This document shows positions 1,853 to 44,030 of a stretch of DNA of 64,000 nucleotides, one piece after another. The stretch lies in NCBI RefSeq assembly GCF_030384885.1, contig NZ_CP128613.1; one strand, written 5' to 3'. The first letter of the stretch is position 1, and the number at the start of each line of letters is the position of its first letter. This stretch comes from Escherichia coli. Lineage in GTDB: Bacteria > Pseudomonadota > Gammaproteobacteria > Enterobacterales > Enterobacteriaceae. A program made the translations under genes and the position numbers. Below the pieces are notes generated by a model. It was given only the letters and a program-made list of their open reading frames with translations, did no database searches and was not told the origin of the DNA.

Positions 1853-2380
1853 ATGAACCGTTTCATCATTGCTGACGCGAGTAAATGTATTGGTTGTCGT
1901 ACCTGTGAAGTGGCGTGCGTGGTTTCTCATCAGGAGAATCAGGACTGTGCATCGCTGACCCCGGAAACTTTTTTACCGCGAATCCATGTCATTAAAGGTG
2001 TGAACATTTCCACGGCGACAGTCTGCCGTCAGTGTGAAGATGCACCGTGCGCTAACGTCTGCCCGAATGGTGCTATCAGCCGTGATAAAGGGTTTGTTCA
2101 TGTCATGCAGGAACGTTGCATTGGTTGCAAAACCTGCGTTGTGGCTTGCCCGTATGGTGCGATGGAAGTGGTAGTGCGTCCGGTGATTCGCAACAGCGGC
2201 GCAGGGCTTAACGTACGCGCTGACAAAGCCGAAGCTAATAAATGCGACCTCTGTAACCATCGTGAAGACGGCCCGGCCTGTATGGCTGCTTGCCCGACCC
2301 ATGCGCTGATTTGTGTCGATCGTAATAAACTTGAACAACTGAGCGCAGAAAAACGCCGCCGCACGGCGCTGATGTTCTAA
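1853..2380 (+). CDS. hydN: 4Fe-4S ferredoxin-type electron transfer protein
   Basis: Multiple CxxCxxCxxxCP ferredoxin motifs in track ORF 1838..2380; start refined to [12 protein letters not shown]; position upstream of hypF. Confidence 0.85.
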
Positions 2381-2532
2381 AAATCTTACAGAACTGTTCT
2401 GGCATCAAAGGAATTCCCGGAAATATTCGTAGAATACGGAGCGGGCGGTATCGCCAACCTGTGACTACCGGATGCGACGCGGTCGTGTCCGGCTGGGCGG
2501 GTTACGCAATTCATGATGGCGGGAATAACTCA

Positions 2533-4785
2533 ATGGCAAAAAACACATCTTGCGGTGTCCAACTGCGTATTCGTGGCAAAGTGCAGGGCGTCGGTTTTCG
2601 TCCATTTGTCTGGCAACTGGCACAGCAATTAAATCTTCACGGCGATGTCTGTAATGACGGCGATGGCGTGGAAGTCCGGTTGCTGGAAGATCCGGAAACG
2701 TTTCTTGTTCAATTGCATCAGGATTGTCCGCCGCTGGCGCGTATTGATAGCGTCGAATGTGAGCCGTTTATCTGGATGCAGCCGCCCACTGAGTTCACCA
2801 TCCGCCAGAGCGCGGGCGGCGTCATGAATACGCAAATTGTTCCCGATGCCGCGACTTGTCCTGCCTGTCTTGCCGAAATGAATACCCCAGGCGAACGGCG
2901 TTATCGTTATCCGTTTATCAACTGTACCCACTGCGGCCCGCGTTTCACCATTATTCGCGCGATGCCTTACGACCGTCCGTTTACCGTGATGGCGGCGTTT
3001 CCGCTATGTCCGGCCTGCGATAAAGAATATCGCGACCCGCTCGATCGTCGCTTTCACGCCCAGCCGGTGGCCTGCCCGGAGTGTGGCCCACATCTTGAAT
3101 GGCTAAGTCATGGTGAACATGCGAAACAAGAGGCGGCATTACAGGCGGCTATCGCTCAGTTAAAAATGGGCAACATTGTCGCTATCAAAGGGATTGGCGG
3201 ATTTCATCTCGCCTGCGATGCGCGTAACAGTAACGCGGTGGCGACACTACGGGCGCGCAAACATCGCCCGGCGAAACCGCTGGCGGTTATGTTGCCAACG
3301 GCAGAAGGTTTGCCCGACGCTGCCCGTCAGTTGCTCACCACGCCCGCCGCGCCGATTGTACTGGTGGATAAAATATATGTTCCGGAACTTTGTGACGATA
3401 TCGCCCCTGGCCTTAACGAAGTCGGGGTGATGTTGCCTGCGAATCCGCTCCAGCATTTGCTGTTACAGGAACTGCAATGCCCGCTGGTGATGACCTCCGG
3501 CAACCTGAGCGGTAAACCACCGGCTATCAGCAACGAACAGGCGCTGGAGGACTTGCAGGACATTGCCGACGGATTCTTGATTCATAACCGCGACATCGTG
3601 CAGCGGATGGATGATTCAGTGGTGCGCGAAAGTGGCGAAATGTTGCGCCGCTCGCGGGGGTATGTACCGGATGCGCTGGCTTTGCCTCTGGGCTTTAAAA
3701 ATATTCCTCCTGTGCTGTGTCTCGGTGCGGATCTGAAAAATACCTTCTGTCTGGTGCGTGGTGAACAGGCGGTGTTGAGTCAACATTTGGGCGATTTAAG
3801 TGACGATGGCATTCAGATGCAGTGGCGCGAAGCGTTGCGCCTGATGCAAAACATCTACGATTTTACTCCACAGTTTGTGGTGCATGATGCGCATCCGGGC
3901 TATGTCTCCAGCCAGTGGGCGCGTGAAATGAATCTGCCGACGCAAACGGTGCTGCATCACCATGCCCACGCGGCGGCGTGTCTGGCAGAACATCACTGGC
4001 CGCTGGATGGCGGTGATGTCATTGCGTTGACGCTCGACGGTATTGGTATGGGGGAGAACAGCGCTTTATGGGGCGGCGAGTGCCTGCGGGTGAACTATCG
4101 CGAATGCCAGCACCTGGGCGGCTTGCCAGCGGTGGCGCTTGCTGGGGGCGATTTGGCGGCGAAGCAGCCGTGGCGTAACCTGCTGGCGCAGTGCCTGCGC
4201 TTTGTGCCGGAGTGGCAGAATTACCCTGAAACGGTAAGTGTGCAACAGCAAAACTGGAGCGTGCTGGCGCGGGCCATTGAGCGTGGAATTAACGCGCCGC
4301 TGGCGTCATCGTGTGGGCGTTTGTTCGATGCTGTGGCGGCGGCACTGGGCTGTGCGCCAGCCACGTTAAGTTATGAAGGTGAAGCGGCTTGCGCCCTTGA
4401 GGCGCTGGCGGCTTCGTGCCAGGGAGTGACGCATCCGGTGACGATGCCGCTGGTGGACAATCAACTGGATCTCGCCACTTTCTGGCAGCAGTGGCTGAAC
4501 TGGCAGGCTCCGGTTAATCAACGCGCGTGGGCATTTCATGATGCGCTGGCGCAGGGTTTTGCCGCGTTGATGCGTGAGCAGGCCACGATGCGTGGTATCA
4601 CTACGCTGGTATTTAGCGGCGGGGTTATTCATAACCGTTTGCTGCGTGCACGTCTGGCGCATTATCTTGCTGATTTTACGTTGCTCTTCCCGCAGAGTTT
4701 ACCTGCGGGGGATGGCGGGTTGTCTCTGGGGCAGGGGGTTATTGTTGCGGCCCGTTGGGTGGCGGGTGAAGTCCAGAATGGATAA
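2533..4785 (+). CDS. hypF: Carbamoyltransferase HypF, [NiFe]-hydrogenase maturation
   Basis: Track ORF 2461..4785; acylphosphatase-like N-terminus ([10 protein letters not shown]), two Zn-finger CxxC pairs, YrdC and Kae1-like domains; start refined to [15 protein letters not shown]. Confidence 0.9.
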
Positions 4786-21310: not shown

Positions 21311-21403
21311 GGTGAGGTGGCCGAGAGGCTGAAGGCGCTCCCCTGCTAAGGGAGTATGCGGTCAAAAGCTGCATCCGGGGTTCGAATCCCCGCCTCACCG
21401 CCA
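21311..21403 (+). tRNA. serV: tRNA-Ser (anticodon GCU)
   Basis: ggtgaggtggccgagaggctgaaggcgctcccctgctaagggagt...ggttcgaatccccgcctcaccgcca: long variable arm, GCT anticodon, terminal CCA. Confidence 0.9.
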
Positions 21404-21406
21404 TTT

Positions 21407-21483
21407 GCATCCGTAGCTCAGCTGGATAGAGTACTCGGCTACGAACCGAGCGGTCGGAGGTTCGAATCCTCCCGGATGCACCA
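21407..21483 (+). tRNA. argV: tRNA-Arg (anticodon ACG), copy 1
   Basis: gcatccgtagctcagctggatagagtactcggctacgaaccgagcggtcggaggttcgaatcctcccggatgcacca, 77 nt, ACG anticodon. Confidence 0.9.
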
Positions 21484-21682
21484 TATTCTCCGAAATCTTC
21501 AGCGATGAAGGTGTCGAAGAGGTGGCGGTACTAACCGCAAGCACCAGGGAGGATAACGTTGCTTTAGCAACGGGCCGAAGGGCGAGCCGTAAGGCGAGTA
21601 ATCCTCCCGGATGCACCATCTCTTACTTGATACGGCTTTAGTAGCGGTATCAAAAAATCTGCAGTAAAGTAAGTTTCCCGAT

Positions 21683-21759
21683 GCATCCGTAGCTCAGCTG
21701 GATAGAGTACTCGGCTACGAACCGAGCGGTCGGAGGTTCGAATCCTCCCGGATGCACCA
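21683..21759 (+). tRNA. argY: tRNA-Arg (anticodon ACG), copy 2
   Basis: Identical 77-nt sequence to copy 1. Confidence 0.9.
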
Positions 21760-21956
21760 TATTCTACGAAATCTTCAGCGATGAAGGTGTCGAAGAGGTG
21801 GCGGTACTAACCGCAAGCACTAGGGAGGATAACGTTGCTTTAGCAACGGCCAGAAGGGCGAGCCGCAAGGCGAGTAATCCTCCCGGATGCACCATCTCTT
21901 ACTTGATATGGCTTTAGTAGCGATATCAATATCAGCAGTAAAATAAATTTCCCGAT

Positions 21957-22033
21957 GCATCCGTAGCTCAGCTGGATAGAGTACTCGGCTACGAACCGAG
22001 CGGTCGGAGGTTCGAATCCTCCCGGATGCACCA
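21957..22033 (+). tRNA. argZ: tRNA-Arg (anticodon ACG), copy 3
   Basis: Identical 77-nt sequence to copy 1. Confidence 0.9.
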
Positions 22034-22231
22034 TATTCTACGAAATCTTCAGCAATGAAGATATCGAAGAGGTAGCGGAATTAACCGCAAGCACCAGGAA
22101 GGATAACGTTGCTTTAGCAACGGCCCGAAGGGCGAGCCGCAAGGCGAGTAATCCTCCCGGATGCACCATCTCTTATTTGATATGGCTTTAGTAGCGGTAT
22201 CAATATCAGCAATAAAGTAAGTTCTCCCGAT

Positions 22232-22308
22232 GCATCCGTAGCTCAGCTGGATAGAGTACTCGGCTACGAACCGAGCGGTCGGAGGTTCGAATCCTCCCGG
22301 ATGCACCA
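22232..22308 (+). tRNA. argQ: tRNA-Arg (anticodon ACG), copy 4
   Basis: Identical 77-nt sequence to copy 1. Confidence 0.9.
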
Positions 22309-25216: not shown

Positions 25217-25290
25217 GAAAAAGGCCACTCGTGAGTGGCCAAAATTTCATCTCTGAATTCAGGGATGATGATAACAAATGCGCGTCTTTC
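25217..25290 (-). ncRNA. micA: MicA (SraD) small regulatory RNA
   Basis: Minus-strand reading gaaagacgcgcatttgttatcatcatccctgaattcagagatgaaattttggccactcacgagtggcctttttc matches the MicA sequence I recall, ending in a ggccactcacgagtggcc hairpin plus U-run; lies between gshA and luxS. Confidence 0.8.
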
Positions 25291-40806: not shown

Positions 40807-41189
40807 AATTCGGTTACTCCTTTACGAACGTTTTCGATATCGCTTTGCGTACCCATGAGTTCAAAGCGGTACAGCCACGGCACGCCGCATTTCCGGGCAA
40901 TCACATCTCCGGCGCGGCCATACGCCTCACCAAAGTTGCGATTACCCGAAGCAATAACGCCGCGAAGCAACGCCCGGTTATGCTCGTCGTTTAAAAAGCG
41001 AATGACCTGTCGTGGCACCGCGCCAGCTGTACCGCCGCCGCCGTAAGAGGGCACGATCAGGATGTAAGGCTCGTCTACCTGAATCCGTTCCCGCTCATTG
41101 AGCGGGATGCGCACCGCGGGCAGCCCTAAACGTTCGATAAAACGCTGCGTATTTTCGGAGCTGCTGGAAAAGTAGACGAGCTGGCTCAT
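40779..41189 (-). CDS. nrdI: Flavodoxin-like NrdI
   Basis: Track ORF 136 aa; overlaps nrdE start. Confidence 0.95.
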
Positions 41190-41431
41190 GCACTGGCCGC
41201 GTGTGGCGCTGAATGCAGACGATTGATCATGTCCGGGCGGAAACCAGACCAGCTAAGATCGCCTGCAATCACTACCGGCAACTGACGAAAGCCCTGAGCA
41301 CGTAACGCTTCCGCCGCTTCAGGAACGCGATCGACATTAATCATTTCAAAATCAAAGCCCCGGTTTTCCATCGCCCGTTTGGTGGCGTGGCACTGAACGC
41401 AATCGTTACGAGTGTAAATAGTAATGCGCAT
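41186..41431 (-). CDS. nrdH: Glutaredoxin-like protein NrdH
   Basis: Track ORF 81 aa with CVQC redox motif. Confidence 0.95.
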
Positions 41432-41639
41432 GATTCGTATTTCCGTTTAAAATGAAGATACGGCGCGATGATACGCGTCGGGTTGTCTCTCTGCTGATAC
41501 AGAGATACTAGATGTAGTTGAAAAAAGATTCAACCATACAAGATATGGGAATTTTAGATTGATTACACCACCGATGAATGGCTCAACGGGGTAGGGGATT
41601 TTGTGTTTTTTTGCCGGGCGATTGCCCGGCATCAGGAAG

Positions 41640-42071
41640 TTACATCCGCATGGAAACGGCCAGGCGGTTAAAGCAATTCATCAGCCCGATGGCAAATGTT
41701 AAGTCGCTGATTTCTGCTGCGCTGAAATGCTCAAGCAAAGGCTGATAAACGTCGTCCTCCGCATGGGTTCGGGCAATATCGGTCACCGATTCCGCCCATG
41801 CCAGCGCCGCCCGCTCGCGATCGTCAAAATGATGGCTTACGCGCCAGCCTGCCAGGGCATCCAGCTTATGCTGCGGCACACCGGATTTGCGTAATGCTTT
41901 GCTGTGCATCTCCAGACAAAATGCGCAACCATTGATTTGCGAGACGCGCAAATAAACTAACTCCATCAGCGTAGTTTCCAGCGTGCTATTTTCCAGCGCC
42001 GTTTTGGCCTGCACCAGCGCGTTATATACCGTTGGGCTAAGTTCGTAGTAAGGCTGACGTAATGTAGTCAT
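41640..42071 (-). CDS. Carboxymuconolactone decarboxylase / AhpD-like family protein
   Basis: Track ORF 143 aa with the AhpD-core C-x-x-C-x-x-x-H motif (NGCAFCLEMH). Confidence 0.65.
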   Translation of the reverse strand: MTTLRQPYYELSPTVYNALVQAKTALENSTLETTLMELVYLRVSQINGCAFCLEMHSKALRKSGVPQHKLDALAGWRVSHHFDDRERAALAWAESVTDIARTHAEDDVYQPLLEHFSAAEISDLTFAIGLMNCFNRLAVSMRM

Positions 42072-42158
42072 ACAGTTTCTCCTCTTATTAACGCCCGCAA
42101 TGTAGCACTATAATGGACTGCTAAAGAGAGCCATAAATTACCTAAAAAAGCAGACCAT

Positions 42159-43493
42159 ATGCCGCGCTATCAGGATATCGCCCGTCAGTTAAAAACGGCT
42201 ATTGAGCAAGGGGAACTGAAACCCGGCGCAAGGCTACCTTCAAGTCGTACCTGGTCGCAGGAACTGGGGGTGTCTCGATCCACTGTCGAAAATGCGTATG
42301 CTGAGCTGGTGGCGCAAGGATGGCTGATCAGGCGGGGACAGGCTGGCACATTTGTCAGTGAGCAGATATATCCGCAACAATCTACTGTACAAGTTGTGGC
42401 TTTTGCCGGTGAAAGTCAGCAACCGTTGCCATTTCAAATGGGATTACCCGCACTCGATCTCTTTCCGCGAGAGCTGTGGGCGCGGGTGATGGGGCGTCGC
42501 CTTCGTACCCAGACGCGCTTTGATTTGGCGTTAGGCGATGTCTGCGGTGAGGCGGCGTTGCGTGAGGCAATAGTTGATTACTTACGCGTTTCACGTGGGA
42601 TTGATTGTCAGCCAGAGCAGGTCTTTATCACTCACGGTTATGCGGCCTCAATGGCTTTAATTCTGCACGCGCTGGCGAAACCGGGAAACGGGATGTGGAT
42701 GGAAGATCCCGGCTTTCCACTGATTCGCCCGATTGTCACTCGCCACGGTGTGGAAATTTTGCCTGTGCCGGTTGATGACAACGGACTGGATATCACAAGA
42801 GGAATACAAAATTATCCTGATGCGTGTTTTGCCCTGATAACACCAGCACACCAAAGCCCGCTGGGTGTGGCGCTCTCTTTAGCGCGCAGGCATCAGATAC
42901 TGGAATGGGCAGAGCGTAGTCAGGCATGGATTATTGAAGATGATTATGACAGTGAGTTTCGCTATCACGGTAAGCCGTTACCGGCGTTAAAAAGTCTCGA
43001 TGCACCGCAGCGGGTAATTTATGCCGGAACATTCAGCAAAGCACTATTTCCTGCATTGCGCTGTGCGTGGCTGGTGGTGCCGGTGAAGCAAATTGCACAA
43101 TTCCGCCACCAGGCGTCACTGGCTCCATGTGCGGTACCTGTTCTATGGCAGAACACACTGGCAGACTTTCTTCGCGAGGGGCATTTCTGGCGGCATCTGA
43201 AGAAAATGCGTCAGCATTATGCTCAACGTCGGCAATGGATTGAGCAAGCGTTGACGCAGCAGGGATTTCAGGTTGTGCCGCAGAAAGGTGGTATCCAGAT
43301 GGTGATCAGAATGATGGGCGATGATATTGCCCATGCGCGTAAAGCCAATGCTGCAGGCCTTGCGGTGCAGGCACTTAGCGACTGGCGTATCCGCTCAAGT
43401 GGGGAAGGTGGATTACTTCTCTCTTTTACCAATATCGTTAACGAAGGTATGGCGCGACAGGTAGCACAACAATTACGTAAAGCCTTAAGCTAA
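42159..43493 (+). CDS. MocR-type transcriptional regulator (GntR HTH fused to PLP-dependent aminotransferase-like domain)
   Basis: Track ORF 444 aa: N-terminal GntR-like HTH (SSRTWSQELGVSRSTVENAYAELVAQGWL) and fold-type I aminotransferase domain with candidate PLP lysine in YAGTFSKALFP; divergent from the CMD gene across an 87-bp spacer. Confidence 0.7.
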   Translation: MPRYQDIARQLKTAIEQGELKPGARLPSSRTWSQELGVSRSTVENAYAELVAQGWLIRRGQAGTFVSEQIYPQQSTVQVVAFAGESQQPLPFQMGLPALDLFPRELWARVMGRRLRTQTRFDLALGDVCGEAALREAIVDYLRVSRGIDCQPEQVFITHGYAASMALILHALAKPGNGMWMEDPGFPLIRPIVTRHGVEILPVPVDDNGLDITRGIQNYPDACFALITPAHQSPLGVALSLARRHQILEWAERSQAWIIEDDYDSEFRYHGKPLPALKSLDAPQRVIYAGTFSKALFPALRCAWLVVPVKQIAQFRHQASLAPCAVPVLWQNTLADFLREGHFWRHLKKMRQHYAQRRQWIEQALTQQGFQVVPQKGGIQMVIRMMGDDIAHARKANAAGLAVQALSDWRIRSSGEGGLLLSFTNIVNEGMARQVAQQLRKALS

Positions 43494-43517
43494 AAAACCC
43501 CGAAATCAGGCTTCGGG
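43491..43517 (-). terminator. Intrinsic terminator of ygaM (weakly bidirectional)
   Basis: ccccgaaatcaggcttcgggg hairpin flanked by an A6 run on the plus strand (U-run on the minus transcript). Confidence 0.65.
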
Positions 43518-43549
43518 GTCAAAGACGCGTATTTATTATCATTGTTGCA

Positions 43550-43879
43550 CTACGATTTGCGCATGCTTAACAGTGCGCCGATAAAAATACCTACCGCAGC
43601 TGCTGTACCCACGCTACACCAGGGTCTTTCACGAACAAAAGAATCCGCGCAGCCAACGGCATCGCGCGCGGCTTGCTGGACGCGAGTACGACCATGCATT
43701 CGCGCTCTGGTTTCTTTCAGTAGAGCCTGCGCTTTACTACGAGCGGCTTCGGCTTCCCCTTTGGCGTCGCTGCCCCAGGACTTCAATACAGACTCGAGAC
43801 TGTCAGCCAATTGATTGACATCATTCTGGATATCCTGCACGCCATCATCAACGTCGTTGCGGTTCGGTCGGTTAAACAT
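43550..43879 (-). CDS. ygaM: DUF883 (ElaB/YqjD-type) ribosome- and membrane-associated stress protein
   Basis: Track ORF 43550..43891; C-terminal TM anchor AAAVGIFIGALLSM; start refined to MFNRPNRND. Confidence 0.8.
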   Translation of the reverse strand: MFNRPNRNDVDDGVQDIQNDVNQLADSLESVLKSWGSDAKGEAEAARSKAQALLKETRARMHGRTRVQQAARDAVGCADSFVRERPWCSVGTAAAVGIFIGALLSMRKS

Positions 43880-44030
43880 ATGATCCCCCATTAGAATTCG
43901 ATGTAATTTTCAGTGTAGACCATAATTTTCTTAACTGAGGTTCATCGCGGCTTTATGGACTTTTCTGAAAGCGTTGTGAATGCGCAATCAGGTAAGGTAG
44001 GACCGCAGTTGATAATAACGAGGATCAAAT

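Follow-up and report, generated by a model that had tools for sequence, protein, structure and literature searches.

Why do some strains of Escherichia coli carry two divergent genes between nrdH and ygaM, and what might these genes do? We addressed this question for a window (the whole stretch of DNA analysed here) of 64,000 nucleotides from E. coli contig NZ_CP128613.1. One gene of the pair (41640..42071, minus strand) encodes a 143-residue protein of the carboxymuconolactone decarboxylase (CMD)/AhpD-like family, of the PA0269 type, as called from the list of open reading frames (ORFs), Pfam and the AhpD-core model. The other gene (42159..43493, plus strand) encodes a 444-residue regulator of the MocR subfamily, as called from the ORF list and Pfam. 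The 87 bp between them (42072..42158) form a divergent control region that holds the putative operator and both candidate promoters. We read the pair as an ancestral MocR regulator with pyridoxal 5'-phosphate (PLP) and its AhpD-like target, which together would act as an inducible detoxification module that was lost in K-12, and we put the probability of this whole reading at roughly 0.6. The genes, their domains, the catalytic and PLP residues, purifying selection, conservation of the operator, the distribution of the pair and a deletion scar were observed directly.

Both ORFs are real genes under purifying selection, not chance ORFs. RefSeq calls the identical two coding sequences in strain 2013C-4282, where the region is 100% identical to the window. 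Across five orthologues neither gene contains an internal stop codon, and the ratio of nonsynonymous to synonymous divergence (dN/dS) is only 0.05-0.10 in comparisons out to Citrobacter (0.05-0.08 for the CMD gene, 0.08-0.10 for the MocR gene); therefore, both ORFs are genuine. A sequence-only reading that preceded this analysis had already assigned the domains, the CxxCxxxH motif, the divergent orientation and the 87-bp spacer, all of which were reproduced with the ORF list, Pfam and the model TIGR00778.

The regulator consists of a GntR winged helix-turn-helix (wHTH) domain at about residues 4-66 (PF00392, 63.6 bits at residues 4-66) and a fold-type-I aminotransferase-like domain (Aminotran_1_2, PF00155, 92 bits), with K294 as the PLP lysine and R301 as the phosphate arginine. 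Hence, it has the characteristics of the MocR subfamily: a GntR wHTH, an aminotransferase-like domain with a PLP lysine, and direct and inverted operator repeats by its own gene. In an alignment with GabR, K294 corresponds to the Schiff-base lysine K312 and R301 to R319, and the DDYDSEF motif is kept. Moreover, 80 of 80 MocR homologues share K294, D261, Y263 and S293. Given this invariance and the match to the GabR lysine, the regulator very likely retains PLP binding.

Searches of the PDB identified Bacillus clausii PdxR (7pq9, 215 bits) and B. subtilis GabR (197 bits) as the closest solved structures. The regulator resembles GabR in its combination of a wHTH with an aminotransferase-like domain, in the PLP lysine, the equivalent of R319 and the DDYDSEF motif, and in having a divergent target. 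The predicted operator is also placed as in GabR, overlapping the regulator's own promoter and lying upstream of the target promoter, although here this placement is read from the sequence and from inferred promoters. Unlike GabR, however, the regulator remains far below the cutoff of the NCBIfam GabR model (262 bits vs a cutoff of 600), and its target is not an aminotransferase. Furthermore, R207 and R430, the GabR ligands of the carboxylate of gamma-aminobutyric acid (GABA), are replaced by L188 and D408. Because of these two replacements, the regulator is unlikely to bind GABA in the manner of GabR.

An alignment of the spacer across 24 taxa revealed three blocks with invariant cores and fixed spacing, separated by sequence that drifts. 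Box A (ATGGACTG; 42113..42120, plus strand) has the invariant core ATGG.C. Box B (AGAGCCAT on the plus strand, ATGGCTCT on the minus strand; 42127..42134, minus strand) has the invariant core A..GCCAT, and box C (CAGACCAT on the plus strand, ATGGTCTG on the minus strand; 42151..42158, minus strand) has the core G..CAT and abuts the MocR start codon. Boxes B and C repeat each other in direct orientation at a distance of 24 bp, and box A is their inverted copy at an offset from box B that is fixed at 14 bp in the 24 taxa. The operator of GabR consists of two ATACCA direct repeats, unlike the three ATGGnCTG-type boxes found here. The combined pattern of boxes A and B is found a single time in the 64-kb window, where 0.01 occurrences are expected, whereas any single operator 8-mer alone is not significant. 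A strict regular expression for all three boxes matched 37 of the 80 homologous loci. Many of the non-matching loci still have a box-C-like element, and ..AGG(A/C)CAT stands next to the MocR start in many distant loci (Pseudomonas, Burkholderiales, Rhizobiales, a Sorangium and a metagenome-assembled genome of the Bacillota). Two direct boxes plus one inverted box is also the commonest type of MocR motif (PMC5320631). The three conserved boxes are most likely the operator of the regulator.

Candidate promoters could be placed on both sides of this control region. For the MocR gene, a TATAAT (42109..42114, plus strand) that we read by eye as the -10 is conserved within the Enterobacteriaceae and is overlapped at its 3' end by box A; it has no good -35. 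For the CMD gene, the only spacer positions outside the boxes that are invariant in the 24 taxa, A28, T32 and A33, fall on positions 6, 2 and 1 of a minus-strand TAnnnT, and we therefore took TACATT (42099..42104, minus strand) as the candidate -10, again with a poor -35. Measured against the latter -10, box A would lie at about -25, box B at about -38 and box C at about -62.

The predicted target is a small thiol protein. It matches the CMD family (PF02627, 72.8 bits) and carries CxxCxxxH as C49-A-F-C52-L-E-M-H56 (CAFCLEMH). The AhpD core domain model TIGR00778 is passed (52.5 bits vs a cutoff of 27.8), but the model of the mycobacterial AhpD subfamily, TIGR00777, is not (30.2 bits vs a cutoff of 191.95). 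The active-site residues are E37, C49, F51, C52 and H56. In 63 of 63 CMD homologues, C49, C52 and H56 are conserved without exception, as are N47, W76 and E86; among these homologues, position 37 is Glu in 41 and position 51 is Phe in 51 and Tyr in 12. The nearest solved structures are Pseudomonas aeruginosa PA0269 (2ijc/2o4d/7xw1; E ~1e-31 over the full length) and then Agrobacterium tumefaciens Atu0492; judged by eye from the alignment, the solved homologue is about 50% identical. PA0269 is an all-helical AhpD-like protein from a structural family whose members mostly crystallise as hexamers, it uses the proton relay E36/C48/Y50/C51/H55, and it reduces H2O2 weakly in a thiol-dependent manner in the FOX (ferrous oxidation-xylenol orange) assay (PMC3141380). 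Its residues E36, C48, C51 and H55 match E37, C49, C52 and H56 of the CMD protein, whereas its Tyr50 is replaced by Phe51. By analogy, the Cys49-x-x-Cys52/His56/Glu37 centre probably reduces an oxidant or electrophile in a thiol-dependent reaction.

Regulators and targets of this kind have been linked before. In a computational reconstruction of MocR regulons, Suvorova & Rodionov (2016) found COG2128/PF02627 genes in 53 of them (PMC5320631). The regulog 'Spro_3719 - Enterobacteriales' groups Salmonella LT2 STM2803 and C. koseri CKO_04020 with Ent638_0497, one gene of K. pneumoniae, ECA2654 of Pectobacterium and Spro_3719 of Serratia (PMC5320631, Table S1b). In each of its members COG2128 is the only predicted target, and the group is separate from the PdxR groups. 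Like our locus, this regulog thus pairs an enterobacterial MocR regulator with an adjacent COG2128 gene as predicted target; the published work is computational throughout. E. coli, however, was included in that study as K-12 only, which does not have the pair, so that the present locus falls outside the published regulons. In a second group, 'PA0268', which contains PA0268/PA0269 and relatives from Burkholderia and Ralstonia, a MocR regulator is likewise predicted to control an AhpD-like gene, but its regulators belong to a different orthologous group from Spro_3719 (PMC5320631). The PA0268 regulon adds a COG1917 cupin, and genes co-regulated elsewhere include COG1917 cupins, COG1182 AcpD/AzoR, PF00583 GNAT and DoxX (PMC5320631). 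The sequence-only reading had expected the regulator to control the divergent gene, an expectation that is consistent with the conserved three-box operator and with the published regulon prediction. The locus is the E. coli member of a MocR/AhpD-like module that is widespread and was already predicted.

Two earlier mentions of individual genes may concern this pair. STM2804 is a gene without known function at about 5 kb from stpA that has been used as a neutral marker site. From locus-tag order, we take STM2803 and STM2804 to lie between ygaM and nrdH. The z3974 protein of E. coli O157 was one of 16 proteins that a salicylidene acylhydrazide affinity reagent captured in a pull-down, and it gave no signal in the confirmatory Far-Western (PMC3191033); by locus-tag order it is possibly the CMD protein or the regulator.

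The gene neighbourhoods of the 80 MocR homologues extend this picture. A CMD homologue was located within 5 kb in 63 of the 80 loci, either divergent, one or two genes away, or directly downstream. The divergent operon combines GNAT, an AzoR-like Flavodoxin_2 gene and CMD in Pseudomonas, GNAT and CMD in Pectobacterium, an AzoR-like gene and CMD in Azoarcus, Mixta and Microbulbifer, and a cupin (Cupin_2) and CMD in one alphaproteobacterium. In loci without CMD, the divergent gene is AzoR-like, NmrA-like or DJ-1/PfpI. By analogy, this set of neighbours (AzoR-like, GNAT, cupin, NmrA-like, DJ-1) suggests a defence against quinone, electrophile or carbonyl stress, and the repeated occurrence of GNAT is a hint of a compound that bears an amine.

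These elements can be combined into a model, of which we infer the binding to DNA, the direction of the regulatory effect, the effector and what the enzyme acts on. Most likely, a PLP-carrying MocR dimer would bind the three 8-bp boxes in the 87-bp spacer. Box A, lying over the regulator's own candidate -10, would mediate autorepression, and boxes B and C, at about -38 and -62 of a candidate CMD promoter with a poor -35, would support effector-triggered activation in a geometry as in GabR and PdxR. Which pair of boxes is occupied would be set by what the PLP carries. The CMD protein would then reduce an oxidant or electrophile via its thiols. Most likely, the pair would serve to detoxify, upon induction, a small molecule that is redox-active or reacts with PLP, because the regulator clade is wired to AzoR-like, GNAT, cupin, NmrA-like and DJ-1/PfpI genes in relatives.

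How did the pair come to lie at this junction? It is flanked by nrdH (41186-41431, minus strand) on the CMD side and by ygaM (43550-43879/43891, minus strand) on the MocR side. The sequence-only reading took nrdH and ygaM to be adjacent in K-12, and its claim that the pair is absent there was borne out: in the K-12 derivatives BW25113 and DH1 the two flanking genes are adjacent, with an intergenic region of 247 bp, and neither gene of the pair is traceable. It described the pair as inserted and as looking accessory. A horizontally acquired islet in a K-12-like junction would agree with the sharp indel, with the presence of the pair in only 1276 (plus 111 partial) of 5426 E. coli genomes, and with the high divergence of the E. 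coli alleles (synonymous divergence, dS, of 0.28-0.40). The comparison of the junction across species points the other way. In a scan of one genome per species, we found 19 further loci with a regulator that is 62-91% identical and a divergent CMD gene beside it (E. albertii, three Citrobacter, Kluyvera, two Pseudocitrobacter, Pseudescherichia vulneris, two Cedecea, Pluralibacter gergoviae and further Enterobacteriaceae). Most of these loci have nrdH on one side of the pair and ygaM on the other. The same four-gene order is found in Rahnella at 47% regulator identity. Outside Escherichia, more than 15 species have the pair in this order and orientation by nrdH and/or ygaM, with Rahnella as the most distant. 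Closer to E. coli, the protein clusters of the pair include members from E. fergusonii as well as E. albertii.

The K-12 sequence itself also argues for a loss. When both genes were excised in silico, the flanks in the window became colinear with the K-12 intergenic region. A flank alignment shows that K-12-type E. coli miss a segment of about 1.86 kb (41639..43493), plus 12 bp within a GC-rich hairpin that follows the CMD stop codon (41612..41631, minus strand; 8-bp stem, fold of -21.1 kcal/mol, z = -4.2). K-12 still keeps the right half of this hairpin, GATTCACCAGGCA. The right edge of the indel is marked by the terminator hairpin of ygaM, which follows immediately on the MocR stop codon (43496..43520, minus strand), as located by a terminator scan and the K-12 alignment. 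No mobility genes, direct repeats or tRNA border the pair in either the window or the RefSeq annotation. Because the junction is shared by other genera and K-12 retains a deletion scar, the pair is ancestral at the nrdH-ygaM junction of the Enterobacteriaceae, and a deletion removed it in the lineage that gave rise to K-12 and most E. coli. The high dS, moreover, reaches into the core gene ygaM and therefore reflects old alleles rather than foreign DNA. These results leave insertion improbable. Of the earlier claim, the polymorphism within E. coli stands and the insertion does not: the pair is absent from K-12, yet present in many genera of the Enterobacterales.

Within E. coli, we surveyed 5426 complete genomes, of which 5421 match the flanks. 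The pair is full-length in 1276 of the 5426 genomes and partial in a further 111, whereas about 4034 (~74%) do not have it. Among the strains that have it are CFT073 and Nissle 1917, each ~97% identical to the window, as well as O157:H7 (~91%). The 111 partial copies carry 69% of the segment. In isolate CFE299 (NZ_OZ465017; our locus L083), the sole partial copy examined, a deletion of 589 bp corresponding to 42158-42746 of the window takes the start codon, wHTH and linker of the regulator, and spares the CMD gene and the three-box operator minus its last base. Hence, the partial-copy strains look like natural regulator-null strains.

The alleles of carriers differ as well. Between O157 (positions 1955-4299 of locus L003) and the window (41640-43891), dS ranges from 0.28 to 0.40 for CMD, the regulator and ygaM, and is 0.12 in nrdH. 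The YgaM protein is 100% identical between the two despite the high dS of its gene, and O157 has about 93 bp of extra sequence, similar to repetitive extragenic palindromic (REP) elements, between the regulator stop codon and ygaM. This divergence suggests old allelic lineages or recombination at the locus. A stretch of the distal nrdH upstream region (41547-41606) is about 50% identical between the window or O157 and K-12, with 97-100% identity on both sides; the nrdHIEF upstream sequence is therefore allelic together with the indel. This stretch presumably includes the distal NrdR-box area.

The position beside nrdHIEF, which the sequence-only reading had called suggestive, raises another possibility, namely that the CMD protein is tied to the class Ib ribonucleotide reductase, either by read-through into nrdHIEF or as a redox partner of NrdH. 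The CMD gene lies directly upstream of nrdHIEF in the same orientation, this adjacency is kept across the Enterobacteriaceae, and both CMD and NrdH are CxxC proteins. After the hairpin behind the Escherichia CMD gene comes A7 instead of a U-run; neither orientation of this hairpin is canonical, and the terminator scanner called no terminator after CMD in the window. Because of this, leaky termination and read-through from CMD toward nrdH are conceivable in Escherichia. Other genera, however, also have hairpins at this place, some of them with true U-tracts, and canonical terminators follow CMD in Pseudocitrobacter, a Klebsiella sp. and Rahnella. Furthermore, among the 80 homologous loci the MocR-CMD pair is never found with nrdH nearby outside the Enterobacterales, and it is conserved across Proteobacteria without that gene. 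In K-12 and in 74% of E. coli, nrdHIEF operates in the absence of the pair, and vertical inheritance suffices to explain the adjacency. For these reasons, a functional link between the pair and nrdHIEF is unlikely, and the proposed tie to the nrdHIEF promoter was not upheld.

An alternative for the regulator itself is that it is a genuine PdxR, which would sense PLP to control biosynthesis or salvage of vitamin B6. Indeed, it scores 408.6 bits against the NCBIfam equivalog model NF052282 'PdxR' (cutoff 320), the gene is labelled pdxR in some RefSeq records, and its position 188 is Leu as in PdxR instead of the Arg of GabR. B. clausii PdxR (7pq9, 7zla and others) is also its best structural match and resembles it in having an operator with two direct motifs and one inverted motif. 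As Tramonti in 2015 and Freda in 2023 are said to have reported, PdxR chooses among these two direct and one inverted motifs in a PLP-dependent manner. The PLP-dependent choice among operator motifs by B. clausii PdxR is summarised in PMC10790758. The model score carries little weight, however: seven of seven diverse MocR homologues (our loci L005, L021, L036, L041, L053, L059 and L082) pass NF052282 with 370-428 bits. Their neighbours are CMD in five, an NmrA-like gene in L059 and an AzoR-like gene in L053, with a pdx gene in none, and a rhizopine MocR model outscores NF052282 in three of the seven. Because of these passes and the higher rhizopine scores, the NF052282 cutoff is not discriminating, and the name 'pdxR' in newer RefSeq records of E. 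coli looks over-specific.

The genomic context also differs from that of B. clausii PdxR. The neighbours of the regulator are CMD, nrdH and ygaM, with no pdxST or pdx salvage gene beside it, the operator pattern in the 64-kb window is confined to the spacer, and the sequence of the boxes differs. In E. coli, PLP is synthesised by the PdxA/PdxJ route, which likewise counts against a PdxR at this locus. GabR is nearly as close in the PDB searches (197 vs 215 bits), and the enterobacterial regulators linked to COG2128 were grouped apart from PdxR (PMC5320631). Taken together, we consider it most improbable that the regulator controls B6 metabolism.

A last alternative concerns the target. E. coli AhpC works with AhpF, which argues against a mycobacterial-type AhpD that recycles AhpC. 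The identification of the CMD protein as such an AhpD, or as a classical PcaC (4-carboxymuconolactone decarboxylase), could appeal to the Pfam CMD match, the AhpD core motif and the proton-relay residues, but there are no pca genes nearby, TIGR00777 gives 30 bits vs 192, and PA0269-type proteins have an N-terminal motif, 9% identity with M. tuberculosis AhpD and weak peroxidase activity (PMC3141380), so that we give it hardly any credence.

Several points weigh against the interpretation that we prefer, a MocR-PLP regulator that induces an AhpD-like detoxifier. The detoxification role draws on gene-neighbourhood association only, and the peroxidase activity of PA0269 is weak (PMC3141380). A scan for consensus sigma-70 promoters came up empty in the spacer, and both promoters were inferred by eye; with box A located within the promoter spacer, simple repression would fit equally well. 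Positions 187, 188, 408 and 410, the equivalents of the effector-binding positions of GabR, vary across the clade, and because of this variation one effector common to all these regulators is not assured. The orthology of STM2803/STM2804 is presumed from locus-tag order and the distance to stpA. Finally, the searchable literature yielded no experimental study of any member of the regulator group, including studies of MocR with CMD, AhpD or azoreductase.

The detoxification model also allows a bolder version, which we regard as doubtful. Here, instead of sensing a metabolic amine, the PLP of the regulator would trap a reactive toxin chemically, and the resulting adduct would shift the dimer from one box pair to another and induce the AhpD-like detoxifier. 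The trapped compound might be an arylamine, hydroxylamine, hydrazine, quinone-imine or other carbonyl-reactive electrophile. P. aeruginosa MpaR, a cyanide-responsive MocR regulator with a respiratory and redox regulon that senses a PLP-reactive toxin (PMC10790758), offers a precedent for a MocR PLP site that senses a reactive non-amino-acid toxin. The likeness drawn here is one of function, and MpaR differs in its targets (the ccoN4 cluster) and in its palindromic motif. If a PLP trap operated at this locus, it would provide a function for the largest uncharacterised class of MocR targets, COG2128 with its 53 predicted regulons, in a tractable host with natural presence, absence and regulator-null variants.

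At the nrdH-ygaM junction, K-12 represents a derived, deleted state, which corrects the view of an insertion. Meanwhile, the RefSeq label 'pdxR', likely over-specific, is spreading through E. coli annotations. The B2 strains CFT073 and Nissle and O157:H7 are handy hosts in which to study the MocR/AhpD-like module, with natural controls in the 74% of E. coli genomes without the pair and in the ~2% with a partial copy, in the one examined of which the DNA-binding half of the regulator is deleted. The practical value is modest.

Some further features were noted in the window. A 61-residue ORF (41447-41632, minus strand) overlaps the nrdH promoter region; it is unannotated in the identical RefSeq strain and probably spurious. 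Rfam detected no RNA element in or beside the CMD-MocR locus. Elsewhere in the window, it identified a five-gene tRNA array (21311-22305), the MicA small RNA (25219-25290) and one more tRNA (58188-58260). We take these landmarks to be consistent with the serV-argVYZQ and luxS-gshA neighbourhood of K-12. Four of the five tRNA genes in the array have identical scores, with a spacing of about 275 bp.

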